A DNA stretch of 24,331 nt from IMG/VR virus record IMGVR_UViG_2778261216_000006; one strand, given 5' to 3'. The stretch is from a virus (taxonomy: Duplodnaviria; Heunggongvirae; Uroviricota; Caudoviricetes). Position numbers and translations under genes: made by a program. How positions within the stretch are numbered: position 1 is the stretch's first letter; every line of letters starts with the position of its first letter. Positions 1,541 to 24,331 of this stretch are shown here, piece by piece. Below the pieces are notes generated by a model. The model searched no databases, was not told the origin of the DNA, and was given only the letters and a program-made list of their open reading frames with translations.

Positions 1541-1612
1541 CAAATTGACTACACCATTAACTACACCGTTCGGTGCACTGTATGAAACAACGTGGAACAA
1601 ATAGACACAAGA
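1541..1612. repeat. Left arm-type repeat (ATTGACTACACCATTAACTACACCG ... GAAACAACGTGGAACAA)
   Basis: ~75-bp imperfect direct repeat of 16455-16535; it lies ~70 bp inside the core, as expected for integrase/Xis arm sites. Confidence 0.5.
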
Positions 1613-1898
1613 AATATACAGGCGGGTAATCTTTCCAGGGGGAAGCGCACCAATTCATGAGGGGCGTTAATGTCGATATGGGGATCCCCATAACGGGGCT
1701 ACCGGATTTTTTTTCCGGTTAACCTTTAATCAGGCTGGTGGGTTTTACATACCCTTGATCACCGTAATGATGATCCAGATGTGCACCTTTTCCACCAATG
1801 GCGGAAAGCTCCAACCGTAACGATGATCGCTATGGTTGCCTCGATGGCCTGCGTGGTCATTATGACCATTCAGAATGTGAGGGATGATGTTTCCGCTC

Positions 1899-2305
1899 TC
1901 CTCAAATTGAGGTTACCGGAAATATCAACTACTTAACGATAAACTGGCGAGTAATTAAACTGCGAAAATTTCGTAGCTTGTGACTATCTGAAAGATCGTC
2001 GGTTGTTCCGGCCTCAACCGTTGGCTGTTTCCGAGAATATCAACGGGTTAGCAAAGCGCAATTTTGCACTTTGCTTTAAGTTCAACCAGTTACCGCCAGC
2101 TTCCCCCAATGGGGGATTGTGGAATAATCAACGGTTTAGGCCTTAATCATCTGCGTAAACATAAGTAATCATAATGATCATTCAGCCAGCGCAATTTTGC
2201 GCTTTGCTTTAAGTTCAGCGAGTTACAGCGCCGACTTCCTCAAATTGAGGTTGCCGGAAATATCAACCAGTTACGAGGCTCAAAATTGAGCCGCCTTTAA
2301 ATCAA
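1899..2305. repeat. Structured non-coding repeat region near the island left end
   Basis: No ORF of 60 aa or more; two ~40-bp direct repeats carrying palindrome CCTCAAATTGAGG (1899-1940, 2237-2277), two copies of hairpin AGCGCAATTTTGC(G/A)CTTTGCTTTAAGTTCA (~2056, ~2190), five (A/T)ATCAAC motifs. Confidence 0.5.
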
Positions 2306-2309
2306 CACG

Positions 2310-2591
2310 TTACCGCCGTAACCGCTCCGGCTTCTTCCAGTTGTACGTAATTTTCTCTTTCTCCCTGTACATCTCTACACGGCGATTGTAGGCCAGCATT
2401 TCAAGAACGCGGATCCGTATGTCGCGCATATCCGCATCATTAAGCTGGATACCATCACGGCGCATCACCTCAGCAACAACACGCGCATAATTTTCGGCTG
2501 TCACGCTGTCCGGCTGCGTGGTCTGTTCGTCAGCCTGCTGGCTGATTCCAGAGACGCGGCGGATTAATCGCAGTATTTCGGCTTCTGTCAT
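2310..2591 (-). CDS. Hypothetical protein (93 aa) immediately downstream of terminase large subunit
   Basis: ORF begins 14 nt after the TerL stop with a GAGG ~10 nt upstream; no recognisable family. Confidence 0.5.
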   Translation of the reverse strand: MTEAEILRLIRRVSGISQQADEQTTQPDSVTAENYARVVAEVMRRDGIQLNDADMRDIRIRVLEMLAYNRRVEMYREKEKITYNWKKPERLRR

Positions 2592-2604
2592 GCTGCTGAC
2601 CTCA

Positions 2605-4266: not shown

Positions 4267-4606
4267 GCTCGTCCTCTTCTTCTGTTTCCGGTGGATTTTT
4301 ACGGCGGCTTATCGGGTCAAAACCGAGCAAAGAGGCCATTTTTATCATCACTCTTTCAGCGTCGGATTTTGCGCTTAATGCGGGGTTTCTGCTCTCGCCG
4401 CCCTGACTGTTAACAATGCTGAACCCGCGCGCCGCAAGGTCTGCAACGGCTTTCCGGTAAATGGAGTAGTTGACACAATACAGTTCCAGATTGCTCCAGT
4501 CGGCGGGGGTCAGGTCTCCCCGTTCCGCAAGCTGCCTAGATTTTTCCCGCCACTGCTTCACGGCGATATCATCCAGGTAGGCGGGGGCTTTCGGTGGTCT
4601 TGCCAT
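4250..4606 (-). CDS. Phage terminase small subunit (P27-family-like)
   Basis: 118 aa; LELYCVNYSIYRKA and RNPALSAKSDAERVMIKMASLLGFDP match the small-terminase signature; directly upstream of TerL. Confidence 0.85.
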   Translation of the reverse strand: MARPPKAPAYLDDIAVKQWREKSRQLAERGDLTPADWSNLELYCVNYSIYRKAVADLAARGFSIVNSQGGESRNPALSAKSDAERVMIKMASLLGFDPISRRKNPPETEEEDELDRLE

Positions 4607-4728
4607 GCTTATTTTTCGCCAGATTATTTTTCAAAAAATTCCCGTGCATAAAAATTTGAGGAGGCGTTCGGTGCCCGGCGGGGTCGGGTTTGTCCTGAAA
4701 ACGCCCCCCACCCCGTCATACAGCCTCA

Positions 4729-4911
4729 TCAGCGATTGCGGAAACATTCCATAACCTCGCGGTCACGGTCGGTTAATCGCTTCGCTGTGATGCGTTCTGC
4801 GCGTCCTGACGCTTTATCTTTATGCCCTGTTTCCTGTGTCTTCCATGCGTCACGCTGCCTTATAAGTCCACGGATAAGGCGGTTTTGTTCCCGATCATTC
4901 ATCAGCGTCAT
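4729..4911 (-). CDS. Hypothetical small charged protein (~60 aa) between HNH and TerS
   Basis: C-terminal part of track ORF 4729..5133 lying past the HNH stop (MTLMNDREQNRLIRGL...); the start is my estimate. Confidence 0.35.
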   Translation of the reverse strand: MTLMNDREQNRLIRGLIRQRDAWKTQETGHKDKASGRAERITAKRLTDRDREVMECFRNR

Positions 4912-5335
4912 ACATCCAGTTATTGCGGTTAGCGGCCCGTTCTTCCTCTTCACGAAATCCACCTGCGGCACGCTTGCTTTTTGTTGCCGGATCAAGCCAT
5001 TTCGTTTTCTGGTTATGACACGCCTGACACAATGGTTGATGGTTCCATTCGGGCCAGAAGAGAACATCATCACCGCCATTAATCGGGATAATGTGATCCA
5101 CCACCACGGCGGGCGTATATATCCCCTTCTCAAGGCATCGCACGCATAACGGGTTTTTACTCAGATACATGGCGCGGTATTTGTCCCACTGTCTGGAATA
5201 TCCACGCGCGCGGCGGTGTCCTCGTCTGGCATCCTCTGCACGCCATGCCGCCCGCCTGTGCTCTTCACACTTGCCGGATTTAACGCGCCTGTTACAGCCT
5301 GGTTCTGTGCATCGTCTTAATGGTTGCCACGGCAT
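4895..5335 (-). CDS. HNH endonuclease (phage packaging-associated)
   Basis: 146 aa; Cys-rich N-terminus, VVDHIIPINGG and CQACHNQKT motifs. Confidence 0.9.
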   Translation of the reverse strand: MPWQPLRRCTEPGCNRRVKSGKCEEHRRAAWRAEDARRGHRRARGYSRQWDKYRAMYLSKNPLCVRCLEKGIYTPAVVVDHIIPINGGDDVLFWPEWNHQPLCQACHNQKTKWLDPATKSKRAAGGFREEEERAANRNNWMYDADE

Positions 5336-5631
5336 CAGTACACCCCCACATCACGGTAAGCCGTCCAGAGTGCGCCAATCGTCATGGGTACGCGTGTTTT
5401 TGCGTTATCCGCGACAATCTGGCGATTCTCATACAGGTGAGCGATAAACATCATGCAGCCAATCTTTATGGCTGGCGTGAACTCCAGCCCGTCATCAAAG
5501 CGCCTGCCTATGTGTATCTGGCACGCCTCAAGCGATGCGGCAATGTATCCGCTGATTAACTGGTCTTCCTCGTCGCCATCGATGCGGCAATGGAGTTTCA
5601 CTTCTTCCAGGGTGATAAGTTCTTCTGTCAT
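5335..5631 (-). CDS. gp6-like head-tail connector protein
   Basis: 98 aa; LITLEEVKLHCRIDGDEEDQLISGYIAA N-terminus typical of this family. Confidence 0.8.
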   Translation of the reverse strand: MTEELITLEEVKLHCRIDGDEEDQLISGYIAASLEACQIHIGRRFDDGLEFTPAIKIGCMMFIAHLYENRQIVADNAKTRVPMTIGALWTAYRDVGVY

Positions 5632-6008
5632 TTTTCCGCGCCCTCACGACAAAGAATTTCAAGGCGTGTCCTGGCGGCATCCGGCAGCGGCTGCCCGATG
5701 ATATTCAGTACACGCCCCGCCAGCGGCCCCGTACTGACCTTTATCCGGCTGGTGGCGTTGATGTCCTTCCGGTACCGTATCCAGATCCTTACGGTACCAA
5801 TCGCCAGCTCTGCACCCGATGAAATGGCCTCCTTGCTGCTGACCATGTTCACGCTTGCCCAGAGTGTGTGACCGTCCTCCCACGTTTCGAGTATTTCGCC
5901 GGTTATATCCCTGGTCTGTTTCAGGGTCTGAATCGTTATCCTGTCACGCAGTCGCCCTATGTTCATTCCGGTTTTTCTCCCTCGCTGATTTTTACTTCCT
6001 GTTTCCAT
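5628..6008 (-). CDS. Phage head closure / head-tail adaptor protein
   Basis: 126 aa; MNIGRLRDRITIQ ... VRIWIRYR ... pattern; the true start may be the internal Met near 5966. Confidence 0.78.
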   Translation of the reverse strand: METGSKNQRGRKTGMNIGRLRDRITIQTLKQTRDITGEILETWEDGHTLWASVNMVSSKEAISSGAELAIGTVRIWIRYRKDINATSRIKVSTGPLAGRVLNIIGQPLPDAARTRLEILCREGAEK

Positions 6009-7174
6009 GCCTGGCTGAACTCATCACCACCATCACGCGGTGACAGTCCTTCACGTTCGCGGGCTTCGTTCGGACACATAACGCCGGATTTGATGCCGCG
6101 CTCATAGGTGGCAAAGCGTTCGCCAGGTGTGGCCCGTAACAGGTCCGCGCTGTCAAACTCCACCTGATACCGGATACCAGGTACAGGCGAGGCCACCAGC
6201 AGGGCGTTTTTTATCTGCTGCTCAAAGTTCGCCAGCCACGGGCGCATCGTCATGGTGAGAAATGCGCGGCTTGCCTCGCTGAAATTGCTGTAGGTGCTGT
6301 TGCTGTATTCCTGCAAAAAAATCGGCGAGACGTTGAACATTCGGGCGATGTCTTCAATGGTGAAGCGACGGGAGGCCAGCCATTCAGCATCCTGATTACT
6401 CATGCCCAGCTGCTGATAGCTCATACCCCCTTCAAGGATGGGCGTTTTTCCGGCGTTTCTGGCCCCTTTGTAGCGTTCCAGTGCGGCTAATGCCTGTTTG
6501 CCCTTCACGCCGTCCAGCCATTCGCCTGACGTGATAACCCCTGCCGCCATCATGCCATCACGCATCACGCTCGCGCCGTGGCGTTGTTGGGCCAGCCCAA
6601 GCCCCAGCGATTCGCGGCAGATGGTTACAGGTGAGCGCCCCATAAAGCCGTCATCCGTGGAGTAACGAAGGTGAAGTACTTCCCACGGTAAATAGTTGCG
6701 GGTGTTTCCGGTGTAAGCGTCAGTGATGCAGTAGCGCCAGTTGTGTTCGCCTGTCTGCTCCACGTTCACCGACTGCGGCGGGTAAGGATGTAAAGCCACC
6801 GGAAAACCATCACGCCCCCACTGAATCACCGCATAAGCATTACCGTTTAACAGGCAGTGGCGGATCATCATTCGCTTAAACTGGTAGGGAGTCTGCCACG
6901 CGTTCGGGCGCTCGTTGAGGATGTGATCGACCGGATGAGAATCAAGCCACTCGCGGGCCTCCTTCCCCTTCTCATTGCGTACCAGGTACAGGTAACACGG
7001 CATGGTAGCCACCGCCTCAGAGATGACCGTGACGGCGTTCATAACGGCGGGCAGTGATTCCGCTGTCCCCGATGATACGTACTCACCCGCCCCCGTGTTC
7101 GATGTGCCAGCCAGCGCCATAAACTCATCAAGCGTCATGCTGCGCTGCTCTTTTTTTCTTCTGAAAGGCCACAT
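5963..7174 (-). CDS. Phage portal protein, HK97 family
   Basis: 403 aa; size and conserved blocks of the portal family; lies between protease and head closure genes. Confidence 0.9.
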   Translation of the reverse strand: MWPFRRKKEQRSMTLDEFMALAGTSNTGAGEYVSSGTAESLPAVMNAVTVISEAVATMPCYLYLVRNEKGKEAREWLDSHPVDHILNERPNAWQTPYQFKRMMIRHCLLNGNAYAVIQWGRDGFPVALHPYPPQSVNVEQTGEHNWRYCITDAYTGNTRNYLPWEVLHLRYSTDDGFMGRSPVTICRESLGLGLAQQRHGASVMRDGMMAAGVITSGEWLDGVKGKQALAALERYKGARNAGKTPILEGGMSYQQLGMSNQDAEWLASRRFTIEDIARMFNVSPIFLQEYSNSTYSNFSEASRAFLTMTMRPWLANFEQQIKNALLVASPVPGIRYQVEFDSADLLRATPGERFATYERGIKSGVMCPNEAREREGLSPRDGGDEFSQAWKQEVKISEGEKPE

Positions 7175-7175
7175 A

Positions 7176-7748
7176 TCACACCCCCGCTAAATCCACCCAC
7201 CAGCGGCGATTATCCGCACGCGGCATTTTTTCGGGGTGCTGCTCATACAGGGAACGGCGGGCCAGCTCCACGCCGGAATCGGGGTAAGCCGGTACCGATG
7301 TAACGGTAATTTCGTACAGTTCCGCCACCAGCACGGTGCGCACGCATGGATCTGTTGTGGTATCCCATACATCCTTACGGGAGCGAAAGCCAAAGCTCAT
7401 CCCCGAGATGTCCCCACGCTTAACCAGTTCGATAACGTCGCGCCCTGTACTGGTATCCGGTGGGGTCAGTTCAAAGCGTAACCCTGTTTCGTCCTCTTCC
7501 AGTTTCAGCGTGCCGGAACGGGTGCGCCCCAGTAACATGCTGTGGTCATGCTCATACAGGCCGCGAACGTCATTACCCGCCGCAAGCCATTCAGTAAACG
7601 CCCCCCGCTGGAATTTTTCGTAAAACTCACCCCATAACAGTTCTGAAAGCTTATCCCAGCGAACAACGTAGCCCGTCAGCGTACCGGCTCCGCTGGTGGT
7701 GATTTCCGATGACCGGATTTCCATACTCTTCATAATTTTTTCACCCAT
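7176..7748 (-). CDS. HK97-family prohead serine protease
   Basis: 190 aa; TLTGYVVRWDKLS, HDHSMLLGRT and GMSFGFR blocks. Confidence 0.9.
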   Translation of the reverse strand: MGEKIMKSMEIRSSEITTSGAGTLTGYVVRWDKLSELLWGEFYEKFQRGAFTEWLAAGNDVRGLYEHDHSMLLGRTRSGTLKLEEDETGLRFELTPPDTSTGRDVIELVKRGDISGMSFGFRSRKDVWDTTTDPCVRTVLVAELYEITVTSVPAYPDSGVELARRSLYEQHPEKMPRADNRRWWVDLAGV

Positions 7749-7787
7749 AAAACACTAAAGGGGCTTTTAAGCCCCTTCTGTATGCTG

Positions 7788-8993
7788 TTAATCGTCGTCC
7801 TGTGGCAGTTCCAGAATCTTGATCGCGTTCGAATCCACCACGCCACCGCCTAAATATTTCTGCGTGAAAATTTTGATGAAGCCCGGCTCTGTGAGGTTGT
7901 CCGGTCTGGTGCGAACACCTGTTTCGTGATCAACAATGTAGTAACCGCGTTTGAAGTCACCCAGGGCAATAACGTTATCAGGCATAAACTCCAGATATTC
8001 GACCGGAAGGCCCAGCAACGTATCAGGATCACCCGCCTGTAAACGGTCGCGCCAGATGTAATCACCGTTCGCGTTCTTCACCTTCTGAAGTTTTGCCGCC
8101 GTCGTGGAGTTAACCACCCAGACCGCGTTTTTGCGGTATTTTTTACGTAATGCAAATTTCAGGTCGATCAACGGGTCCGCAGATGTCCACGCCAGAGATT
8201 CGGAAGGTTTAATTACCTGCAACGTACCAAAATCACGCTCTTTGTCGTTCTTCTCTGCACGGGGTACGGATAAAAAACCTTTTGCTTTTTTGTCACCGTC
8301 GCCCACAACCAGATCGCTTTCTTCGGTTTCCGTGAAGGTGTCGCCAATCTCACCCGTCAGCCATGAAAGGATGTCCACATCGGAAAAATCCACGATTTCC
8401 TGTGTGGTGCGCGGGTACGCATAGACCGGATACAGCTTAATGCTCACCTCGTTAATCTGCGGGGTGCTGGTCTGTTCGCGTGTCTTACCCTCTTCACCGT
8501 GGTTAACGGTCGCACCGCCAGCGGAAACAAGCTGCTTAAACTCGTTGCTGCTGATTTTCTTCACGGTACAGATGCGGCGCATGGTGGACTCATCCGCCAG
8601 CATTCGCATGATTTCGGTGTTCAGCTCGGGGATAACGGTATAACCACCATCAGCGGGAACGCCTGTACTTAATGCGCGGGTTTCACCCGTCAGAATGTAG
8701 TTTCGTAGTTCTGCGGGGTCAGTGGTCTGACTGCTTTTACCTGGCTTGCTGCGCTCTTCGTCTGCAATGGCTTCAAGGCGGGAAATGTCTTTATCGAGGG
8801 ATTCAGCTTTAGCGCGTAATTCGTCAAATTTTGCGCCCTCAGCATCGTTAAGACTGCGGTTTTCTTTTTCCGCGTTCTCCAGCATGTCGCGCATCTGATT
8901 TTTAATGGCGGTTTTCTGCTGGCGTAATTCGATTATTCTCGGCATAAAAAAAGTCCTGGGGTTAAGTAAGGAACTCCAGGACGCGGCAAACAC
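7788..8993 (-). CDS. Major capsid protein, HK97 family
   Basis: 401 aa; N-terminal coiled-coil delta-domain-like region, then a conserved HK97-fold body; start (GTG at 8993 or internal Met) uncertain. Confidence 0.93.
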   Translation of the reverse strand: MFAASWSSLLNPRTFFMPRIIELRQQKTAIKNQMRDMLENAEKENRSLNDAEGAKFDELRAKAESLDKDISRLEAIADEERSKPGKSSQTTDPAELRNYILTGETRALSTGVPADGGYTVIPELNTEIMRMLADESTMRRICTVKKISSNEFKQLVSAGGATVNHGEEGKTREQTSTPQINEVSIKLYPVYAYPRTTQEIVDFSDVDILSWLTGEIGDTFTETEESDLVVGDGDKKAKGFLSVPRAEKNDKERDFGTLQVIKPSESLAWTSADPLIDLKFALRKKYRKNAVWVVNSTTAAKLQKVKNANGDYIWRDRLQAGDPDTLLGLPVEYLEFMPDNVIALGDFKRGYYIVDHETGVRTRPDNLTEPGFIKIFTQKYLGGGVVDSNAIKILELPQDDD

Positions 8994-9035
8994 TCAACCG
9001 TTTTTCATAAGGAAATCAGCAATCGCACCGATCGT

Positions 9036-9083
9036 TTTCCCGCCTGGTAATGAATATTGGCGAGCACATTAACAGGCGGGAAA
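9036..9083. promoter_or_regulatory. 11-bp perfect inverted repeat TTTCCCGCCTG / CAGGCGGGAAA with 26-nt spacer in the leader of the capsid operon
   Basis: Read directly; located 45-90 bp upstream of the capsid gene start. Confidence 0.35.
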
Positions 9084-9157
9084 GTGGCCCCAGCGTCCTG
9101 GCACCACGGGCGAGAATAATCATGATTCAGTTCGGGTAAAATATGCCGATCCGCTCA

Positions 9158-9189
9158 GTGAACAACGTGGAACAACCACGAACAAATAA
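9158..9189. promoter_or_regulatory. Dyad motif GTGAACAACGTGGAACAACCACGAACAA upstream of the capsid operon
   Basis: Contains palindrome CGTGG-AACAA-CCACG; near-identical copy, inverted, at 15115-15145; half-sites inside both att arm repeats. Confidence 0.4.
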
Positions 9190-9226
9190 TTTACAAAAAA
9201 TAACAAAAAGCCGGATTGCTCCGGCT
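9190..9226 (-). terminator. Rho-independent terminator (hairpin AGCCGGAGCAATCCGGCT plus T-run on minus strand)
   Basis: Stem-loop followed by TTTTTGTTATTTTTT on the minus strand, just downstream of ORF 9246..9470. Confidence 0.6.
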
Positions 9227-9245
9227 GTATGTGCTGTATGGGTGC

Positions 9246-9470
9246 TCAGTCTCTGATCCCTTTCAGAAATTCTATCAATGCATCTGTCTGTTCAGGATTT
9301 ACTGCCAGCATTTCACCGGATAGCGCGCAACGAACAAAACCATGATGATCCTTTTCAATCAGCGCCCCCGTTTCCAGAAATGCGCGGTAATCAGTGATAT
9401 TCATCGTCTCCATGTTGTCAGCATGGTATTTATCACGCTGTTTAAGTATCTCATCAAATTTCATCGGCAT
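9246..9470 (-). CDS. Hypothetical protein (74 aa), moron-like gene flanked by two copies of the same terminator
   Basis: Internal Met of track ORF 9246..9548, preceded by GAGGAAAACGCA; no family recognised. Confidence 0.55.
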   Translation of the reverse strand: MPMKFDEILKQRDKYHADNMETMNITDYRAFLETGALIEKDHHGFVRCALSGEMLAVNPEQTDALIEFLKGIRD

Positions 9471-9562
9471 TGCGTTTTCCTCTGTTGTGTCTGTTTGTTT
9501 CAGATAGTAACTATGCCGGACCGTGACGAAAAGCCAGTAGTGCTCCATACCGTTTCAAATGA

Positions 9563-9588
9563 CGCAAAAAAGCCGGATTGCTCCGGCT
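9563..9588 (-). terminator. Rho-independent terminator (second copy of AGCCGGAGCAATCCGGCT hairpin)
   Basis: Same hairpin plus T-run on the minus strand, downstream of the PerC-like gene. Confidence 0.6.
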
Positions 9589-9610
9589 GCGTGGTGTGGT
9601 TCTGATATTC

Positions 9611-9859
9611 CTACTCAGCTAATTTGCTCAGCCCCATGTCTGCGTAAGTGCGATTTACTGCATTTCTCAGGTCTGCGTAGTTCTCCGTTGGCGGCTCCGG
9701 TGGCCTCTGTGCCTTCCTGGAACATTCCAGCCGTCGCATCGTAACCTGATGCCGTTCCTTGTCTGTCTCCACCAGTTGCATGACTTCACCCCATCGCGCC
9801 GACGCCCTCCGGTAAAATCCTTTCGCCTCGAGTTCCTCCGCTATGCGGTCATGTACCAT
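9611..9859 (-). CDS. PerC-family-like transcriptional regulator (82 aa)
   Basis: Start at internal Met with strong SD (GAGGGGGTGA); MVHDRIAEELEAKGFYRRASARWGEVM resembles the PerC-family N-terminus (from memory). Confidence 0.5.
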   Translation of the reverse strand: MVHDRIAEELEAKGFYRRASARWGEVMQLVETDKERHQVTMRRLECSRKAQRPPEPPTENYADLRNAVNRTYADMGLSKLAE

Positions 9860-9869
9860 CGTCACCCCC

Positions 9870-10280
9870 TCAGAACGGAATACCGTCACCGTAAGGGTCA
9901 TCGCCTCCCGCTGGTGGCTGATTACCCTGTGTGCCTGTGGTTTTGCGTCTGTTCCCGCCTGGACGTGCCGCGCGGGCACTGATTACGCTGTCTGCAATAA
10001 CCTGATACCCCCGCCGCGTTTCCCCGTTCTGTCCGGTCCACTGGCTTACCTGCATCGTGCCGGATACGCTGGCAACATCGCCTTTTTGATGTTTAGCCAG
10101 GAAATCGGCCTGTTTGCCAAATGCGATAACCGATAACCATAACGTCGCCTGTCCGTCCTGTGCCTGGCTGCATGGCAAAGATACCGCCATACGCGCCAGC
10201 GTCATCGGTGTGCCCTTGCTGGTCTGTTTTACCTGCGGGTCGTCCACCAGCCGCCCGTAAGCCGCTATCTGTGCTGTCAT
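9870..10280 (-). CDS. Single-stranded DNA-binding protein (SSB-like)
   Basis: 136 aa; OB-fold core blocks, Gly/Pro-rich linker and acidic C-terminal tip ending DGIPF; ATGA overlap with the upstream gene. Confidence 0.8.
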   Translation of the reverse strand: MTAQIAAYGRLVDDPQVKQTSKGTPMTLARMAVSLPCSQAQDGQATLWLSVIAFGKQADFLAKHQKGDVASVSGTMQVSQWTGQNGETRRGYQVIADSVISARAARPGGNRRKTTGTQGNQPPAGGDDPYGDGIPF

Positions 10281-10528
10281 GCTGTCTGCTCTCCGGTTTT
10301 AACGTTGATTGTTGTTACCTGTTCCGCTTCGGCAATCTCCCGTTCTGTCAGCGTGGCAAAGTTTGCCGCCGCTGTTGTCATGAATGCGCTTATCAGTTCG
10401 GGATGCTCCTTCGCGTATCCTTCCCCCGCGTGGCGGTCTATCGTTCTGATTGCCACCTTTAAAGCCAGTTCAGCCATATCTAACGCCTTATATTTCGGCT
10501 CTGTTCTGTCTCTGCGTTTTTGGGTCAT
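10277..10528 (-). CDS. Hypothetical protein (start uncertain, 66-84 aa)
   Basis: Track ORF 10277..10558 overlaps the iterons at its 5' end, so an internal Met (10528 or 10477) is the likely start; translationally coupled to ssb. Confidence 0.5.
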   Translation of the reverse strand: MTQKRRDRTEPKYKALDMAELALKVAIRTIDRHAGEGYAKEHPELISAFMTTAAANFATLTEREIAEAEQVTTINVKTGEQTA

Positions 10529-10540
10529 TTCTCGCAACCT

Positions 10541-10730
10541 CTCACTTTTTCGCCTCACTTTTTCAAGCGTCTCACTTCGTCGCAGTTGGGATTTTTGGTT
10601 TTTCTATGTGTGTGTTTCATAAGTATTTTTTTACCCCTCACTTTTGAGGATGTATACAGGTCGAAAAGTGAGGGAGAGCAGGCTAATTTTGGCCCTCTTT
10701 CCACCCCCCTCGCTTTTGCTCCTCACTTTT
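10541..10730. repeat. Iteron array (CTCACTTTT repeats, at least 6 copies in both orientations) with AT-rich spacer: candidate island replication origin
   Basis: Copies near 10541, 10554, 10571 (variant), 10637, 10665 (inverted), 10709 (variant), 10722; immediately downstream of the replication helicase gene. Confidence 0.55.
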
Positions 10731-12138
10731 ATAGCGGCGCTACATCATCCCCATCGATACGAATAACCCCATCTTTTTCCAGCTTGTACAGCCAGCGCCG
10801 GAAGTTTTTCATTTCATACCCCAGTTTTTTCATGTCATCACGTAACAGCGGGATCGTGCACTTGTCGCCGTTCTGTGTGCGTGAACGGATGCACCCCCAT
10901 AGCGCGGTATGGTTTTCCGTCTTGTTCCCTGCCTCCTCGATGCGCTCCAGTTCAACGGGAGGGCGCGGCTTATCCACCACCACCAGCGACGTGATTAACT
11001 CCCCGTCAGCGTCGGTAAAAAGCTCCACCACCCGCAAATCATAGGCAGCCTCTTTGAGTTCCTCCGCGTCCTTCATTTTGGTGCATGAGATAACCAGCGC
11101 TTCGCTTCCTGCGTCCTCCCTGCGTATCCGGTATTCAGCATCCAGTGATGCACGAAATGCACTGGAACCGCGCGCGCCTTTCGTCTCATCCTTGCCGGAA
11201 TGGTGAACCACCAGCACCGTGGCCCCTGTGCGTCGTTTCAGTTCGTCACACCCACGGATAAACGCCCCCATGTCGCGGGAGTCATTTTCATCATTGCCGC
11301 CAAAGCAGCGCGCCAGCGTGTCCAGAATAATCATGCGAACAGGTTTACCCGTTTCCCTCTCCACCTGACTGGCAGCAATAACCAGTTCATCAACATCAAG
11401 CGGGACAGCCGGAAAGATGGGACGGTTTACCAGATACAGATTTTTCACCTGCTCACCGTGCACAACCTCCCAGGCTTTTACACGACGCGGAACGCCGATA
11501 CCGCCTTCACCAACCACATAGAGAACAGCGCCATGCGCCACCCTGCGGCCTCCCCACTGGCGGCCCGTGGAAACGTGACACGCCCACGATCCGGCAAGGA
11601 ATGATTTATAGGAACCGCTCGCCCCGTATATGCTGCAAAGCGACGATGCCGGAATAATCCCCTTTACCACGTAATCAAGCTGTGTGTCGTATCCGGTAGA
11701 TCCAACGCTCATCGGTAGCGTGGTTTTTCGCTGGGGAATTTTTTTCATGACCAGGCTTTCCCCGCGTTCCCATGCCTCCCTAAGCCGTGGAAGCTGGTCG
11801 CTCCATTCCTCCAGCAATTCGAAATTTTCAGAAAGTAGCCGCGCCTCCTGGACTCCGGCGATCGCCAGTTTCGTGGCGATGGTTAACAGCTGCGGCTCTT
11901 CAATATTTCCGGCGCGTATCACCGTCGCCCTGTATCGCCCATCATCAACAATCTGGAGGTTATCCAGTTCGCTTAACTGATAACGCCCCAGATAAACGGG
12001 AGGGACTGGATCGCCTGCTTTTTTGGCCTGTGCAATGATGTAATGCTCTGCGAATGAGTGAGCATCAATACCCGCAAAAATAATCGCATCGGTGTATTTG
12101 TCTTTCGGTAATAGTTTTACGTTCGGTGCCAGTTTCAT
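10729..12138 (-). CDS. Replication protein, RepA-like AAA ATPase/helicase (satellite pri-rep type)
   Basis: 469 aa; Walker A (YGASGSYKSF), Walker B (RMIILDTL), VVHHSGKDETKGARGSSA block. Confidence 0.85.
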   Translation of the reverse strand: MKLAPNVKLLPKDKYTDAIIFAGIDAHSFAEHYIIAQAKKAGDPVPPVYLGRYQLSELDNLQIVDDGRYRATVIRAGNIEEPQLLTIATKLAIAGVQEARLLSENFELLEEWSDQLPRLREAWERGESLVMKKIPQRKTTLPMSVGSTGYDTQLDYVVKGIIPASSLCSIYGASGSYKSFLAGSWACHVSTGRQWGGRRVAHGAVLYVVGEGGIGVPRRVKAWEVVHGEQVKNLYLVNRPIFPAVPLDVDELVIAASQVERETGKPVRMIILDTLARCFGGNDENDSRDMGAFIRGCDELKRRTGATVLVVHHSGKDETKGARGSSAFRASLDAEYRIRREDAGSEALVISCTKMKDAEELKEAAYDLRVVELFTDADGELITSLVVVDKPRPPVELERIEEAGNKTENHTALWGCIRSRTQNGDKCTIPLLRDDMKKLGYEMKNFRRWLYKLEKDGVIRIDGDDVAPL

Positions 12139-12434
12139 TTTTTACCCCTGAATCCGTTAATCATGGTTTTCAGCTTCTGGATGTTTGCCCGTGCCCTGGC
12201 GTTGCTGGTGGGCACGTTATGCGGCGCGGTCTGTACCAGAGAAAAATCACGCCGGAACTGATAAACAGGCATCACGCAATCATATTCGTAACCTTCACGG
12301 CGGTAAGTTACGCACCGTCCCGCCACGCCCTTAATCATTACCATGCCGCCGTACTGGTCGCGGTAAATATCACCGCGCGTAAATTTAGGGTGAGTGTTGC
12401 CACTGGCAGTTAAGCCAGAATATTTAAGTTTCAT
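12135..12434 (-). CDS. Hypothetical protein (99 aa)
   Basis: GGAGA SD ~9 nt upstream; stop overlaps the rep start (ATGA). Confidence 0.55.
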   Translation of the reverse strand: MKLKYSGLTASGNTHPKFTRGDIYRDQYGGMVMIKGVAGRCVTYRREGYEYDCVMPVYQFRRDFSLVQTAPHNVPTSNARARANIQKLKTMINGFRGKK

Positions 12435-12439
12435 TATTT

Positions 12440-12670
12440 TTATTCTCCGGTGTGGGGCGCGTTATTATTTTCGTGAATTGCCATTGCCTTATCCAGTTCA
12501 TCAATAACAGGCGATAGTAATGTCTGAATGGCTGCAAACATTAATGACGAAGATTCTTCGCCAGATTCCGGCACTTCAATTAATTTGCCTAACAACGCAT
12601 TCATTTCCTTTGCGCGGATTAATGCGTTTTCAGAGTGGATTAATACTTCAAAAGGGATTTTATGCATCAC
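12440..12670 (-). CDS. Hypothetical protein (76 aa)
   Basis: AAGGGAG SD upstream; tightly packed in the operon. Confidence 0.5.
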   Translation of the reverse strand: MMHKIPFEVLIHSENALIRAKEMNALLGKLIEVPESGEESSSLMFAAIQTLLSPVIDELDKAMAIHENNNAPHTGE

Positions 12671-12890
12671 AAATTTTCTCCCTTATTCTTTTAATGTCCT
12701 CATTAAGGATGTCTGTAACTTTTATCAGCGAGTTTTTGGCAATTATTTTTATTGTTTTAAGTTTTCTTTTGTCGTGCTCCGACTGTGATTTTCTCTCCAT
12801 GCTCTCCACCATGTGGGTAACATCAACGAGCGCACGTATCAGTATTTGCATTGCTTCTTCTGCTGCGTCCGGTGTGGTTTTATTGTGCAT
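12660..12890 (-). CDS. Hypothetical protein (76 aa), first gene of the replication operon
   Basis: Internal Met of track ORF 12660..12932 with strong SD (AGGGGGAAACCT). Confidence 0.5.
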   Translation of the reverse strand: MHNKTTPDAAEEAMQILIRALVDVTHMVESMERKSQSEHDKRKLKTIKIIAKNSLIKVTDILNEDIKRIREKICDA

Positions 12891-13122
12891 AGGTTTCCCC
12901 CTGGCGAATACGGGCGGCAAATACAGCAACACAACCGGACGGGCAACGGTTACGCGCTTCGCGTTCCGTCCAGGCGGTTACGTGGATGATTTGACGTTCT
13001 GACGCGCCAAAGGCAATAAAGCGCCAGATGTATTTATTCAGGTTGTGCGAGTCCCGCCCTTGCGGGTGTGTGGTATGATTTCTCATAGCTACCTCGATAC
13101 TATTGCTATCGTTGGTGGTTAG

Positions 13123-13156
13123 ACGCCCCGTATGTGTGCCACCACTGCGGGGCGTT
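13123..13156 (+). terminator. Conserved hairpin GACGCCCCG...CGGGGCGTT (copy 1) bounding cassette 1
   Basis: 8-bp GC-rich stem; near-identical copy at 13860-13896. Confidence 0.45.
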
Positions 13157-13167
13157 GCCTTTTGGTG

Positions 13168-13208
13168 CAAGTCACCTTTAAAGGCTATGCTACTTTCAGG
13201 TGACTTGC
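13168..13208. promoter_or_regulatory. 11-bp perfect inverted repeat GCAAGTCACCT / AGGTGACTTGC (operator-like) upstream of cassette 1
   Basis: Read directly; followed by a T-rich tract and TATACT -10-like hexamer (~13241). Confidence 0.4.
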
Positions 13209-13276
13209 ACTTCAAGCCTTTTTTTATTTTTTTTTCTGCGTATACTGAACGCCACCTAACAGTAAGGAGGCCAGTA

Positions 13277-13456
13277 ATGCCAACGGGTACAACCAACAAC
13301 AAATCACAACAAAAAACGGCTAGAGTTCCTCTAGAAGTTTTAAGCGAAATGAATTTGGTCAAAGAAGAAAACGAAACAGACGCGCAATTCATCGTTACAG
13401 CCATGCGCGGCGAAATCAAACGCCGCCAGCGCCGCAAGGCCAAAGAATCAGAATAA
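13277..13456 (+). CDS. Arc-like ribbon-helix-helix DNA-binding protein (59 aa)
   Basis: Strong SD AAGGAGG 6 nt before ATG; RVPLEVLSEMNLVKEENETDAQFIVTAM matches the Arc pattern (P-x-E-V-L ... EEN). Confidence 0.55.
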   Translation: MPTGTTNNKSQQKTARVPLEVLSEMNLVKEENETDAQFIVTAMRGEIKRRQRRKAKESE

Positions 13457-13461
13457 TCACT

Positions 13462-13505
13462 ATCAGCGCCGTGGTGTGAGGAACTCCGGCGCATTGCTTT
13501 ACAGG
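13462..13505 (+). promoter_or_regulatory. Conserved 44-bp intergenic element ATCAGCGCCGTGGTGTGAGGAACTCCGGCGCATTGCTTTACAGG (copy 1)
   Basis: Contains stem GCGCCG/CGGCGC; second copy at 14146-14189 with a single mismatch. Confidence 0.5.
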
Positions 13506-13513
13506 GCAGCACT

Positions 13514-13741
13514 ATGAACGAACACACATCATCACCGGAAAACGGCGAAAGCACGTCAACATATGAAATCATCCGGCAAAGGCAGTCAGAAGCCTGCGCC
13601 AGACTTGAGGAAGAACTAACCAGAACAAAAATACCACCACCAGCGCCGCGCTTAGTGCCACCAGAAAAATTTGCCCTTGAAGATTTTGTCGATAAATACC
13701 CACGGCGGCTTAAATCCGGCAAAAACCGACCGCCAGGATGA
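13514..13741 (+). CDS. Hypothetical small protein (75 aa), partner of the Arc-like gene
   Basis: ATG 9 nt after the conserved element; shares F-A-x-x-x-F-V-D-K-Y-P-R-R block with the 14198..14401 product. Confidence 0.4.
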   Translation: MNEHTSSPENGESTSTYEIIRQRQSEACARLEEELTRTKIPPPAPRLVPPEKFALEDFVDKYPRRLKSGKNRPPG

Positions 13742-13859
13742 GTGCACAAAACCGAACTATGAAACGGATTATTCCGTTTCCGGGGCGTTTGTGTGTGTAT
13801 AAAGAGTAAGCTATGCTCTTTTATAGCCATAATCGTTACCTCAATTAATGGTTTGGTTA

Positions 13860-13902
13860 GACGCCCCGTATGTGTTCCCATCACTGCGGGGCGTTGTTTT
13901 TT
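13860..13902 (+). terminator. Conserved hairpin GACGCCCCG...CGGGGCGTT plus T-run (copy 2), between cassettes
   Basis: Stem followed by GTTGTTTTTTG. Confidence 0.5.
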
Positions 13903-13945
13903 GTGCTAGTTGTGTGTAATGTGTATATACACATAAACACATTAT

Positions 13946-14140
13946 ATGGGTGTAATTGACGTGTCAACACACAAAAATGAAAGGCGTGGTAATCCTCCTT
14001 TCCAGTTCCGTTTAGATCCTGACTTACGGGAAAAGATGGAAAAAGCACAACAACAAGACGGTGATGACTCTTTAGCTGCTTGGATAAAACGAATAATCCG
14101 AAAAGAATTACAGCAACGCGGTATTGAACCCAAAGAATAA
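13946..14140 (+). CDS. Arc-like ribbon-helix-helix DNA-binding protein (59-64 aa)
   Basis: PPFQFRLDPDLREKMEKAQQQDGDDSLAAWIKRIIRKE follows the Arc pattern (from memory); start ATG 13946 or GTG 13961; palindrome ATGTGTATATACACAT just upstream. Confidence 0.55.
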   Translation: MGVIDVSTHKNERRGNPPFQFRLDPDLREKMEKAQQQDGDDSLAAWIKRIIRKELQQRGIEPKE

Positions 14141-14197
14141 AAAACATCAGCGCCGTGGCGTGAGGAACTCCGGCGCATTGCTTTACAGGTACACACA

Positions 14198-14401
14198 ATG
14201 ACCAATAAAGAATCAACCAATACACCATCGCAAAAAACGAACAGAGAGCACGAAAATATGGCGCTCGAGCATGAATCAGAAAGATTCGCTCCATGCGCTT
14301 TTGTCCTTGATGAGTTTCTAAAAAAATATTCACGTTCTGAACGGATGAAAATGGCAGCACAATACGGCCCCAACAAGCAAGGTAATTGCCCACCAGCCTG
14401 A
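14198..14401 (+). CDS. Hypothetical small protein (67 aa), paralogue of the 13514..13741 product
   Basis: Same position relative to the conserved element; shared FxxxxFVLDEFLKKYSR block. Confidence 0.4.
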   Translation: MTNKESTNTPSQKTNREHENMALEHESERFAPCAFVLDEFLKKYSRSERMKMAAQYGPNKQGNCPPA

Positions 14402-14473
14402 TAGCGGCTATCATTCCCGTGCTTATGTTTGGGATCACATACACATAAGGCGCAGCAGGTTAATTGTTCAGAA

Positions 14474-14506
14474 AGGCGGCTCCATATCGGGGCCGCTTTT
14501 TTTATG
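14474..14506 (+). terminator. Rho-independent terminator ending the plus-strand cassettes
   Basis: GCGGC...GCCGC stem followed by TTTTTTT. Confidence 0.55.
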
Positions 14507-14644
14507 CCTGAAAAACCCCAATTTTGTTGTTTTTCAGTTTCACCAGGGCGAACGAATCCCCGCCCACGTTCGGGCGCATATTCAATCTTCATAGTTATAT
14601 CTCTGTATTAGTGGATGTGTGGCGACTGTGTGCCGCCAGTCTTT

Positions 14645-14833
14645 TTAGTGAACTGCCTTGCAGCTATCCTTCCAGGCCAAAACCTCAGATAAAGACCAGC
14701 CAACAGAACGCCCACCAAGTTTACGACGTGATGGGAATTGTCCGGCCTTTTCCAGGCGGTAGCGGCATGAGCGGCTAAGGCCTGTTAGCTTTTCGCATTC
14801 TTTTTCACGTATAAACCGATCAGTGCTTAACAC
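14645..14833 (-). CDS. alpA: AlpA-family phage regulatory protein (Xis-like activator)
   Basis: 62 aa; LSEVLAWKDS-type C-terminus typical of the AlpA family; sits just downstream of the integrase as in PICIs. Confidence 0.88.
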   Translation of the reverse strand: MLSTDRFIREKECEKLTGLSRSCRYRLEKAGQFPSRRKLGGRSVGWSLSEVLAWKDSCKAVH

Positions 14834-14995
14834 TATTGCCCCCTTTCGTTTCTTAAAGAGTTATTTCGTGTTCTATTGCGTTGGGATGTGTCTGATTGTG
14901 TCAGGATGATTCAGAGTTGGCAAATGTTGGTGTCGCATGGTTTACAGAAAGAGGAATAATCAGGATAAAATCATTTAAATTCATGTTAATACAAA

Positions 14996-15030
14996 GGCAT
15001 AAAATCTTGTTTTATGCCTTTTTTCGCACG
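14996..15030. terminator. Hairpin GGCATAAAA-TCTTG-TTTTATGCC with flanking T-run between int and alpA
   Basis: 9-bp perfect stem followed by TTTTTT on the plus strand; weaker T-tract on the minus strand. Confidence 0.45.
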
Positions 15031-15114
15031 CTTTAACGCGTAATTCACTAATGTATAAAAAACCAGTCACACAAATAAAATCAGTCACTTATAAACCTGC
15101 GTACTTTTTCGCCT

Positions 15115-15145
15115 CTTGTTCGTGGTTGTTCCACGTTGTTTCACA
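15115..15145. promoter_or_regulatory. Inverted copy of the GAACAACGTGGAACAACCACGAACAA dyad motif
   Basis: Reverse complement matches 9158-9189 over ~28 bp; ~70 bp downstream of the int stop. Confidence 0.4.
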
Positions 15146-15207
15146 TTGTTCGCCGTTGTATCTGTGTGCTTATCCAGTATACGCATACTGAAAAAACACG
15201 AAAAAAA

Positions 15208-16458
15208 TTATTTTCTTCTGGCTGCTGGTAGTGCGGTTACGTTTTCATGTGTTCCCGCCAGTATCCCTAACCGCTCCGTCCACATATCCAGCGCATTGCG
15301 TTTAGCATCCAGATAACGGGAATGATTATAAACTCGCTGCATTCCTGGCATCTGGTGGCCTGTAAGCTGCTCCACGACGTGCGGATCAACGCCTAAATCG
15401 TTCAGCATGGTTGTAAAGGTGCGCCGGATGTCATGCAGTGACCAGTGAGGGTGTTTAAGCCTCCTGTGCGCTAATCTGCCGTACTGCGACACGCTGGTTT
15501 CCTGTTTCACTTCCCCCAGCAATAAGCCCGTGTGCCTGTTCTGCTCCACCAGCTGCGTGATGAACGGCAGTATCGCTTCCGGTATGGGCCGGAATATGGC
15601 TACCTTCGTTTTACTGTGCTCCTTCGGAACGGTCCAGAGCATTTCGGTAAAATCCCACTCGCCGATCTCAGATAACCTAAGTTCGACCGTCCGGCATCCG
15701 AACACAATCAGGAGGCGGATTAGCGCGATGTAGTAGGGGGAGAATATTTTTTTGTCCAGTGCCTGCAATAATTCGCCAAGTTCTTTGTTGCTTAAGACAC
15801 GCTCGCTTATATCCGGTTTTTTCCCAACGTCAGCCACACTCATATCATCAAGAACGTTGCTGATTGCATAGCGCCGCTTCCTGCAGAACTTAAGCGCCTG
15901 CTTGCATGTCTGTAGCAGGAACCCGGCGGAAACAGGGGCTTTCTTTGCCACCCGATCAAAACAGGCCAGCCAGTGCCGTAGCTCGCATTTATCCAGCGGC
16001 ATAGGGCCAATGTGCTGTATTACGTGATTATTTAGCCGCTTTTTCAGTGGGTCATAATCCACACGGTTTTCCTTTGCGTACGACTCAAGCCAGTAGGTGA
16101 GCGCATCGCCAACCGTTACAGGCTTTAACGCTTCCTGTACGGAGTAATTCATCTCATGGCGTGGATTTTTCCCTTCTGCCAGCCATGCACGACACTGGGC
16201 GGCTTTTTCCCTGGCTGATTTCAGGCTCAGATCAGGATAATTTCCCAGCTTAATGCGTTCCGGTGGTGCCCCCCTTCCCGCTCCGGCCCTGTAAGTGAAA
16301 TACCAGGTTAAAAGGCCGCTGGTTGAATGCCTGACACTCAGGTTTCCACCGTCATTAAGAAAGGCTGTTTTTTGGGCGGGTGTGCCGTTGATTTTCCTTA
16401 GCTGTGTATCGCTCAGTTTGTTAAGTGCTCTGCTCATAATTTTGAATCCGGTCATCAC
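15208..16458 (-). CDS. int: Tyrosine recombinase/integrase, P4-like family
   Basis: 416 aa; N-terminal arm-binding-like region, catalytic-domain blocks (HDIRRTF, LGHQMPG-type); start codon uncertain (GTG 16458, ATG 16455 or 16437). Confidence 0.94.
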   Translation of the reverse strand: MMTGFKIMSRALNKLSDTQLRKINGTPAQKTAFLNDGGNLSVRHSTSGLLTWYFTYRAGAGRGAPPERIKLGNYPDLSLKSAREKAAQCRAWLAEGKNPRHEMNYSVQEALKPVTVGDALTYWLESYAKENRVDYDPLKKRLNNHVIQHIGPMPLDKCELRHWLACFDRVAKKAPVSAGFLLQTCKQALKFCRKRRYAISNVLDDMSVADVGKKPDISERVLSNKELGELLQALDKKIFSPYYIALIRLLIVFGCRTVELRLSEIGEWDFTEMLWTVPKEHSKTKVAIFRPIPEAILPFITQLVEQNRHTGLLLGEVKQETSVSQYGRLAHRRLKHPHWSLHDIRRTFTTMLNDLGVDPHVVEQLTGHQMPGMQRVYNHSRYLDAKRNALDMWTERLGILAGTHENVTALPAARRK

Positions 16459-16535
16459 AATTAACTACACCATTAACTACACCGATCGTTGCACAAAGGG
16501 CTACAACGTGAAACAAGCTGGAACAAGAAAAATCA
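16455..16535. repeat. Right arm-type repeat (ATTAACTACACCATTAACTACACCG ... GAAACAAGCTGGAACAA)
   Basis: Direct repeat of 1541-1612, between the int start and the attR core. Confidence 0.5.
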
Positions 16536-21572: not shown

Positions 21573-21911
21573 GTATAAAAATGAACAATCCGAATCCATG
21601 CATGACGTGTAGTGCCTGTTGTGCATTTTTCCGCGTCTCTTTTTACTGGGCAGAAGCTGACGATGCTGGCGGAAAGGTTCCGGGTCAGTCTCACTGAGCA
21701 AATATCCCCCTTTCATCGCTGTATGCGCGGCACCAGTCAGAAAAATCCCCGATGTGTCGCTCTGGCGGGAACTCCGGGTAAAAACGCATATTGCTCTGTT
21801 TACAAAAACCGTCCGTCCACGTGCCGGGAATTCGCAATGTCCGGAGAAAATGGCATCGCAAATGAAGCATGCAACCGCGCCCGGGCAAAATACGGACTTC
21901 CGGAAATCTGA
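21573..21911 (+). pseudogene. YkgJ-family CxxCxxCC cysteine-cluster protein gene, frameshifted
   Basis: N-terminus [38 protein letters not shown] stops at TGA; the rest ([14 protein letters not shown]...[29 protein letters not shown]) continues in the +1 frame (track ORF 21612..21911); consistent with loss of CT in a TCTCTC run. Confidence 0.5.
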
Positions 21912-22074: not shown

Positions 22075-22749
22075 TTATTCCTGTGCCCAGCCAACCCTGT
22101 ATGCCAGGATCTCATCCGCACTGCTCAGCGATTCCAGGTCCTTCTTCATGGTGCGCTGGCGAATGTGGATTTCCATCCCTTTAGTGAACATCGCCTGCTC
22201 TGCCGCTTCACTCAGCGCAATAAGCTCTTCTGCTGTCACCGGCACATCATTGTTTTCCGCATCCGTCCAGAAAAACGCCTCCGGCAGTTTCCCCGCTTTC
22301 GCTGCAGCCACCGACGGCTCAAGACGCGTCTGCGTTGACTTCCCGTAGTCCCATTTACGCCCATTGTGCTCAAACGTGTAGTTCGCCGCTTCCATCGCAT
22401 TACGCCAGGCGTTAATTTCATCGCCCTTCATCCCTCGCGCTTTCTCCGCGGTCAGCAGGTCCGTGATTTTCTCCCCGTCAAAACCCCAGCGCCCGCTCAG
22501 GTCAATTTTCCGGTTCTCCGGGGTATCCGGCACTTCTGCCACACTCTGGTTCACCGGCCACAGTAACGCAGTGTCCTTACCGTATCCCGTAATCACACCC
22601 CGGCTGTCATACACCACCTTCAGCGTCTCCGGCGAAAACAACGCCTGACACTCATACCAGTCCTGACCATCCTCAGACTTCAGGTACATCGCGCCTGCAA
22701 CATCCGGCTCCGCCGGGGTGTAATACGAAAAATTTCTGATATGCATCAT
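22075..22749 (-). CDS. Phage tail fibre assembly protein (Tfa-like chaperone)
   Basis: 224 aa; SEDGQDWYE ... VVYD ... VAEVPD N-terminal pattern of Tfa proteins; directly downstream of the tail fibre gene. Confidence 0.72.
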   Translation of the reverse strand: MMHIRNFSYYTPAEPDVAGAMYLKSEDGQDWYECQALFSPETLKVVYDSRGVITGYGKDTALLWPVNQSVAEVPDTPENRKIDLSGRWGFDGEKITDLLTAEKARGMKGDEINAWRNAMEAANYTFEHNGRKWDYGKSTQTRLEPSVAAAKAGKLPEAFFWTDAENNDVPVTAEELIALSEAAEQAMFTKGMEIHIRQRTMKKDLESLSSADEILAYRVGWAQE

Positions 22750-22970
22750 GTTTCCGTGCCCTCCTCCGATACCGGCACCCAGACCGGCATTTTTTCCGCA
22801 CCGACGCCCCGCTTCATACCTGCCGGTGCAGCATCCGCTGCAAAGACTTTATACACCACATAATCCACCACAATACCGTCTTCCGGCCAGCGCCCTGCTG
22901 CCTCATAAACCGGCCGCAGGGACAGGGGATAAAACATATTCTCTGACGGTGAAAAAACATACTGTTCCAT
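22746..22970 (-). CDS. Hypothetical small protein (74 aa) between tail fibre and tfa
   Basis: Stop overlaps the tfa start (ATGA coupling); no family recognised. Confidence 0.4.
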   Translation of the reverse strand: MEQYVFSPSENMFYPLSLRPVYEAAGRWPEDGIVVDYVVYKVFAADAAPAGMKRGVGAEKMPVWVPVSEEGTET

Positions 22971-22979
22971 ACAATGCCC

Positions 22980-24331
22980 TCAGTATCCGATCGCTTCCCA
23001 TGAAAACTTGCCGTAGCATCCCCTGACTGTTATCAGAGTCACAGACACTAATGACGGATTCGACAGGGTATACATCTTAATGACGTTGGGGTCTCCCACT
23101 GCAGACACCTGAGCATTCAGAGCAGCAACCGGAAAAGCGACAGGAAAACGGATAGAGTGTTGTGTCATAAGCTTACCATCATCCTCACTTACCTCAATAC
23201 TGCCCCATTGCCGCAAACGACCGGTTACTTCATCACGCTCCCAGCCATTTACTGTCAGGCTTGCTGTTGTGGGCTTGTTTTTTGTGCTGTAATCCACCCG
23301 CCAGTGAAAACGTTGTGTGTCTCCGTAAACTGTACAGGTACAGACCGTGCCGTTCAGAAAACCATCGCCACCGTATTCGCCGATGGTGACCCGGACTATG
23401 GCTGCGTTATACGTCCCCATCACCTCAATGGCGCAGCCTCCCAGATTGAGTTTTCCCGGTCCGACATCCGTGATGACCTTATTAAATTCCGCAAGCAGTG
23501 ATGCCTTCATCATCCAGTAAGGCTGGTCAAATGCCCCCTTTTCTTTCAGCCAGGCCACAAACTCACTCGTGGTCCATTCACCGGTCTCCGTATGAATGTC
23601 CCGCCCGTATACTCTGGCTGCTCCCACGGTGTTCAGAAACTTCACCTTATCCGGGATATCGTCACCGTTTTTCGCTTTCTCCAGGCATCCGTCCGCTTTG
23701 TCCATTGCCGCTTTCACCGCTTTCGGGGTGGCTGCCTTCGTTTCATCATCACTGTCCGTTGCGCTGCTTAACTGCACAATTCCCTTCTGTGCCGTCGTCG
23801 CATCCGGCCCTCCCGGCTCGCCTTTTTCGCCCTTCTCTCCCCGTTCACCTTTCACACCCTGAAGCCCTGTGGTCCTGTCTCACCACGCTCACCCTTTGGC
23901 CCCCGCTCGCCGGTATCGCCTTTTGGCCCGGGAATACCCTGCGGCCCGGTGTCCCCCTTATCCCCCTTCGGTCCCCGCGCATTCTCTGCCCGTTTTTTTG
24001 CCTCCTCCGCACTGGCTGCGGAGGCTTCCGCACGTTTCAGGATTTCCGCTGCCACCGCTTCCAGCTCTGCAAGGGCTTTCGGGTAATACTGTGCGTCTTC
24101 CAGGTCCATCAGAAATTTATTCAGCGTTCCCGGTGCAGAATCCGCCTTCACCAGAATGTCACCCACATATGACGGCGCGTACCCTTCCGTGTTCAGCGTC
24201 ACCCGGTACAGACCCGGCTCAACATCCATACTGTAACTGCCGGTTTCCCCCGGCTGACCATACGCCACCGTGGTGACAATCACCGTCTCCGTTGTACGGC
24301 GCGCTTTCAGCTCTATCGTGCATCCCGGTAC
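22980..24331 (-). pseudogene. Side tail fibre protein with collagen-like Gly-X-Y repeats, frameshifted near 23852 (5' part beyond window)
   Basis: Upstream frame (open to the window edge) ends ...GERGETGPQGFRV*; the repeats continue in another frame as GVKGERGEKGEKGEPGGPD...; a single missing base in GGC(C)TTCAGGGT would restore one ORF. Confidence 0.7.

Follow-up and report, generated by a model that had tools for sequence, protein, structure and literature searches.

A single-base frameshift within the collagen-like repeats of a prophage side tail fibre gene

The side tail fibre gene of bacteriophage lambda provides a close described precedent for the locus analysed here. According to the account of Hendrix & Duda (1992) given in PMC12617516, a frameshift in stf leaves lambda PaPa without side fibres while its plaques remain normal. 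In that same account, orf-401 and orf-314 of lambda PaPa stand in place of the stf gene of Ur-lambda. Spontaneous stf frameshifts have also been selected experimentally in lambda, and nearly all of them are slippage-class events at short homonucleotide runs (Gallet, Shao & Wang 2009, PMC2762979). Proteins related to lambda Stf are encoded as well by EHEC prophages, which carry the collagen-like proteins EPclA-D (Ghosh et al. 2012, PMC3368898).

The window, i.e. the whole stretch of DNA that was analysed, comprises 24,331 nucleotides (IMG/VR virus record IMGVR_UViG_2778261216_000006). On its minus strand, positions 22980-24331 correspond to codons 17-466 and the stop codon of one prophage side tail fibre gene coding for 466 aa; only the first 16 codons of this gene are missing from the window, as they sit past its end (Table 1). 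Read from 24331 to 22980, the gene appears as two adjacent ORFs in different frames. The 5' ORF runs off the end of the window and its C-terminal end reads GETGPQGFRV followed by the stop, also given as ...GERGETGPQGFRV-TGA and ...GPKGERGETGPQGFRV-TGA. The 3' ORF begins GTG-KGERGEKGEKGEPG, the reading from this GTG being KGERGEKGEKGEPGGPDATTAQKGIVQLSS..., and its GTG start overlaps the upstream TGA as GTGA. As in the tail module of lambdoid phages, the gene is preceded by gpJ and followed by a tail fibre assembly gene, and the order gpJ, hok/gef, fibre, 74-aa ORF, DUF4376/Caudo_TAP-like gene was found in three annotated genomes as well as in the source contig. The tail fibre assembly function is seemingly distributed over two ORFs (22075-22970, minus strand), one of 74 aa without a Pfam hit and one of 224 aa containing DUF4376, which overlap by ATGA. 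This pair is kept in intact relatives.

Table 1. Coordinates of the fibre gene, of its lesion and of the adjacent prophage genes in the window.
Feature	Position	Strand	Basis or remarks
Side tail fibre gene of lambda Stf / EPcl type, interrupted by the loss of 1 nt	22980..24331	-	Full-length alignment to 1401-nt intact genes; Pfam PF08400, PF01391, PF03406, PF21882
Lesion: coding-strand G3 (plus strand CCC) vs G4 in homologues	23865..23867	-	Intact-gene codon 171-172; 13th of the 18 Gly-X-Y triplets
5' ORF fragment, 175 aa when complete	23852..24331	-	N-terminal domain, short Ala/Glu-rich helix, 12 Gly-X-Y triplets, out-of-frame F-R-V, TGA 23854-23852
3' ORF fragment, 291 aa	22980..23855	-	GTG start 23855-23853; last 5 Gly-X-Y triplets, Phage_fiber_2 repeat, gp53-like C-terminal (receptor-binding) domain
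Collagen-like region, (Gly-X-Y)18-Gly in the repaired reading	23811..23974	-	Residues 136-190
74-aa ORF directly downstream of the fibre gene	22746..22970	-	Similar to the N-terminal portion of a tail fibre assembly protein; 72% identical to the 70-aa 'tail fiber assembly protein' of strain RM10809-3
224-aa DUF4376 protein, weak Caudo_TAP (tail fibre assembly) match	22075..22749	-	Final gene of the prophage, followed by the ykgJ-family gene and potB

Pfam analyses of the intact homologue revealed a prophage tail fibre N-terminal domain (PF08400) at residues 1-134 (E = 2.5e-41, and 2.8e-42 in the 175-aa fragment), a collagen domain (PF01391) at residues 135-190 with a score above the gathering score (E = 2e-9), a Phage_fiber_2 repeat (PF03406) after the collagen domain at residues 195-235 (E = 8e-19), and a Gp53-like_C domain (PF21882) at residues 386-466. 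No Pfam match to PF06820 (PfC), the domain that defines EPclA/B, was found in the intact fibre protein. Since its C-terminus is gp53-like instead of PfC, the protein does not belong to EPclA/B and comes closest to the rarer EPclC/D-type architectures. In the repaired reading, 18 Gly-X-Y triplets follow one another without interruption. A preliminary description of this DNA had taken the gene for that of a side tail fibre bearing collagen-like repeats, an identification borne out by the Pfam domains, the 18 triplets and the alignment with homologues. It had also proposed that the Gly-X-Y repeats carry on across the frame change, which they do, with 12 triplets in the 5' ORF and the last 5 in the 3' ORF.

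The fibre gene is mosaic: in many genomes and phages the similarity starts at gene nt 1 and stops near nt 1105 (about 1057 in query coordinates), the remaining sequence, which codes for the C-terminal receptor-binding part (window 22980-23275), being divergent. At the same potB-adjacent site, strain RM10809-3 (L035 24023-25735) codes for a 570-aa fibre with a longer collagen region and a C-terminus that is only 47% identical. Stx phages have only a 104-nt block, located just after the lesion, in common with the fibre gene of the window.

The two ORFs are matched along their whole length by a single gene of complete E. coli genomes (1401 nt, 466 aa), with an identity of 1399/1401 and a single 1-nt gap. 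The sole length difference lies in a G run, where the homologues read CCA CAG GGG CTT CAG GGT GTG AAA and the window reads CCACAGGGCTTCAGGGTGTGAAA. One G is gone from GGGG, CAG GGG CTT of the homologues being CAGGGCTT here; the two alleles are hereafter designated G4 and G3. The split gene has two properties expected of a frameshift pseudogene, namely two ORFs collinear with one continuous ORF of the homologues and a 1-nt indel in a homonucleotide run. The alignment result is deterministic and not statistical. Reading through the split gene requires a frame change of -1 (or +2), and re-insertion of one G restores the peptide Gly-Leu-Gln at the lesion (triplet 13) and yields a 466-aa protein that matches a database entry letter for letter and is present on 89 public contigs, compared to 2 contigs for the truncated 175-aa product. 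The presence of a frameshift inside the collagen-like repeats is thereby confirmed. The preliminary description had also proposed that one base in a GGC(C)TTCAGG context would restore a single long ORF. One base is indeed sufficient, but it is a G of GGGG and not a C, the peptide being the same either way.

The G3 allele is rare. Megablast against 5,426 complete E. coli genomes returned 23 records that span the whole 1352-nt stretch at 96.5-99.9% identity, and in 22 of them the match covers 1353 nt, one base more than in the window. In HY220605, STEC1590 and GE3, the gene is a single 1401-nt CDS coding for a 466-aa 'prophage tail fiber N-terminal domain-containing protein'. A 71-nt probe spanning the lesion had matches at 134 places in 80 complete E. 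coli genomes. The exact G3 71-mer was found in none of these 80 genomes, and among the probe matches listed all 25 complete genomes span 72 nt, which corresponds to G4. An exact-pattern scan of IMG/VR returned G4 in 19 contigs and G3 in a single one. In metagenomes the exact G3 28-mer was found in no contig and G4 in four, and neither pattern was found in the GTDB species representative genomes. All intact homologues examined in this comparison, which the preliminary description had suggested as a check, carry G4 and a single ORF. The sole IMG/VR contig with G3 (IMGVR_UViG_2660238269_000004, L015 8671-10063) contains 12 one-base homopolymer indels within the 1.4-kb fibre gene, and we therefore regard it as an error-ridden assembly and not as a second occurrence of the allele. 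This record is a low-accuracy assembly retained in IMG/VR.

Several apparent cases of a broken fibre gene were set aside. STEC2018-553 (NZ_CP075665.1, L036 1453-2838), the exception among the 23 full-cover records, was considered as a broken copy and rejected: its ORF is intact and codes for 461 aa, the helical segment having lost AEEAK through an in-frame deletion of 15 nt. RefSeq splits this gene into a 'missing C-terminus' pseudogene and a gp53-like CDS, a split that looks like an annotation artefact. Twelve contigs containing a 291-aa ORF were likewise considered as evidence for many frameshifted copies, an interpretation that was also rejected. Among the places listed, G3 accounts for one of nine, seven are contig-end artefacts with G4, and the remaining one is found in the Logan assembly of ERR10498426 (L007 1707-3105). 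The latter has G4 at the site, but carries G5 to G4 at gene nt 129 and A7 to A6 at nt 381, which produce a split into 156-aa and 291-aa ORFs attributable either to independent decay or to read errors. The 291-aa 'hypothetical protein' of the databases comes mostly from contig ends and not from frameshifts. Seven draft-genome contigs (L005, L006 and L008-L012) start 33-52 nt upstream of the G run, indicating that short-read assemblies routinely break in the collagen-like repeats.

We consider it highly improbable that the two-ORF layout is functional, whether through recoding (-1 ribosomal frameshifting or coupled translation of the two parts) or through a phase-variable G tract toggling the side fibre. 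The GTGA stop/start overlap is compatible with termination-reinitiation, but none of the 25 listed complete genomes, 19 viral contigs and 4 metagenome contigs that contain the segment has this layout, and a collagen triple helix cannot link two separate polypeptides end to end. No slippery heptamer of the form X XXY YYZ occurs at or before the stop codon (0-frame CCA CAG GGC TTC AGG GTG TGA). The RNA downstream, over about 100-106 nt from the site, folds no better than its shuffled versions (MFE of -21.1 kcal/mol compared to a shuffle mean of -23.4, z = +0.87). With no heptamer, no downstream structure and no conservation of two frames in relatives, programmed -1 frameshifting was rejected. 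As for a contingency switch, the homonucleotide runs of lambda stf do mutate readily under selection (PMC2762979), but the tract here is 4 nt long and G3 is confined to the lineage of the window and to one error-ridden contig, without recurrence among strains. A recurrent or phase-variable allele was rejected on the basis of the exact G3 28-mer scans of IMG/VR, metagenomes and GTDB together with the probing of complete E. coli genomes. Tracts known to act as contingency loci usually measure 7-8 nt or more, well above the length of the run here.

The allele occurs in two assemblies. The window is identical to contig NJTK01000018.1 of GCA_002459125.1 at 9352/9352 bases compared, and G3 was also found in the Logan assembly of run SRR30255780, in which the overlap is identical at 1012/1012 positions including G3. 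The SRR30255780 contig has different ends and extends 2.4 kb further into gpJ, which is open there for 811 codons. From these observations, we infer that G3 is probably a real and recent one-base deletion produced by replication slippage in one lineage, that of E. coli assembly GCA_002459125.1.

A sequencing or consensus error, the main rival explanation, would imply instead that the strain truly carries G4 and an intact 466-aa fibre, one G having been undercalled in a homopolymer within a G-rich repeat; we regard this as possible but rather unlikely. The lesion does lie in a homopolymer, and a relative (DALPAL010000051.1 of GCA_027230865.1, L005) has zero mismatches over 6078 nt yet carries G4, so the change must be either very recent or technical. 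The error-prone IMG/VR assembly displays the same undercall among its 12 indels, and some platforms undercall this run. The region is also hard to assemble, as shown by the short-read assemblies that often break within 33-52 nt of the run. Against an error, G3 is present in a second assembly produced by another pipeline from run SRR30255780, although this run might derive from the same isolate or library, in which case the second assembly would not be independent with respect to platform error. Contig NJTK01000018.1 is moreover reported for four samples. Four bases also make a short run for consensus errors to arise systematically when coverage is normal.

The state of the other genes bears on the same question. 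Compared to the complete RefSeq genome of strain RM10809-3, about 28 other genes of the 24-kb window are complete and read in frame, including phoQ, the genes of a phage-like island, roxA, pepT, potA and potB, and the only other frameshift in the window, in a ykgJ-family gene, is common to independent assemblies. As no other unexplained indels are present across the 24 kb, the assembly is not generally indel-prone, which speaks against an undercall at the G run. Of the three causes that the preliminary description had put forward unranked, a real deletion limited to one lineage, i.e. local prophage decay, is thus the favoured one and a sequencing error is a possible one. The third, slippage-based variation of the fibre, is unsupported as a designed feature, given a run of only 4 nt, G3 elsewhere in one error-ridden contig only, and no recoding signals.

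The ykgJ-family frameshift affects a YkgJ-family cysteine-cluster gene located between potB and the end of the prophage (21581-21911, plus strand), with one extra base at about 21682-21684, where the plus strand reads GGG compared to GG in GE3 and RM10809-3. The same allele is found in HY220605, in which RefSeq labels the gene 'frameshifted', and in L005; being common to both, it is inherited and not an error.

The phage-like island, of about 14.9 kb, lies between phoQ and roxA (window 1543-16533) and has an imperfect direct repeat of 75 nt at either end (1543-1617 and 16459-16533, 77% identical). Its non-structural genes code for an integrase, an HTH regulator, an Icd-like protein, a DUF4222 protein, a RepA-family helicase, an SSB, PerC and an HNH endonuclease, and its head and packaging genes for a major capsid protein, a prohead protease, a portal, head closure and connector proteins, and the small and large terminase. 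No tail genes were found among the genes of the island (1543-16533), whose layout we take to match that of capsid-forming phage-inducible chromosomal islands. The RepA helicase was considered as a tracer of samples containing the same strain and was rejected, the protein being too widespread.

Under the favoured reading of a real deletion, Streisinger-type replication slippage on the short homonucleotide run of the collagen-like stalk would have converted G4 into G3, in an accessory side tail fibre gene of a lambdoid prophage and recently in the lineage of GCA_002459125.1. G3 would be a null allele. The 175-aa product is predicted to be devoid of the receptor-binding end but to retain the domain for tail attachment, the helical segment and 12 Gly-X-Y triplets. 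The 291-aa ORF could at best be weakly translated by termination-reinitiation at the fortuitous GTGA, with nothing to anchor its product to the virion, and a free receptor-binding fragment would have no means of joining the fibre stalk. By analogy with lambda PaPa, particles without side fibres would presumably still infect via the central gpJ fibre, with slower adsorption or a narrower use of receptors. The most likely interpretation is therefore a strain-limited one-base knockout of an accessory prophage gene, an event of an ordinary and already-known kind with textbook precedent.

We consider it very unlikely that the loss of the side fibre was selected in the resident prophage, as a natural counterpart of lambda PaPa or of the low-adsorption mutants of structured habitats, or that the GTGA yields a free, secreted or decoy receptor-binding half. 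If either were true, the locus would offer a natural example of adaptive fibre loss as opposed to neutral decay. For annotation, the two ORFs are best entered as one frameshifted tail fibre pseudogene and not as two proteins, and homopolymer indels in collagen-like fibre genes call for confirmation at the level of reads. If the lesion is real, the particles would lack side fibres and their adsorption rate or host range could change, which matters only for the study of the phages of this strain. The significance of the allele beyond annotation is small.

Compared to the EPcl proteins, the intact form of the window-type fibre has the same succession of a PfN domain, an Ala/Glu-rich helical segment, a (Gly-X-Y)n collagen region and a Pf2 repeat, likewise in a lambdoid E. 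coli prophage (PMC3368898). Its C-terminus is PF21882 and not the PF06820 of EPclA/B, its helical segment is very short, and the copy described here is interrupted. The stf mutants selected in lambda resemble the window in that they result from 1-nt insertions or deletions at short homonucleotide runs, and those of lambda abolish the side tail fibres; their origin is an experiment in a biofilm-like setting that selected for low adsorption (PMC2762979). The comparison with lambda PaPa extends to several features. Lambda Stf is longer, with 774 aa compared to 466 aa for the window fibre with its collagen-like stalk and gp53-like C-terminus. The window lesion, unlike that of lambda PaPa, lies in collagen repeats and in the resident prophage of a natural isolate instead of a laboratory phage stock, and its phenotype is predicted by analogy. 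In both cases the order of genes is J, a small membrane-protein gene, stf and tfa, the fibre gene is accessory with gpJ still mediating infection (as would be expected for the window prophage), and a single-base frameshift in stf divides the gene into an ORF carrying the PF08400 N-terminal domain and an ORF carrying the receptor-binding C-terminus.
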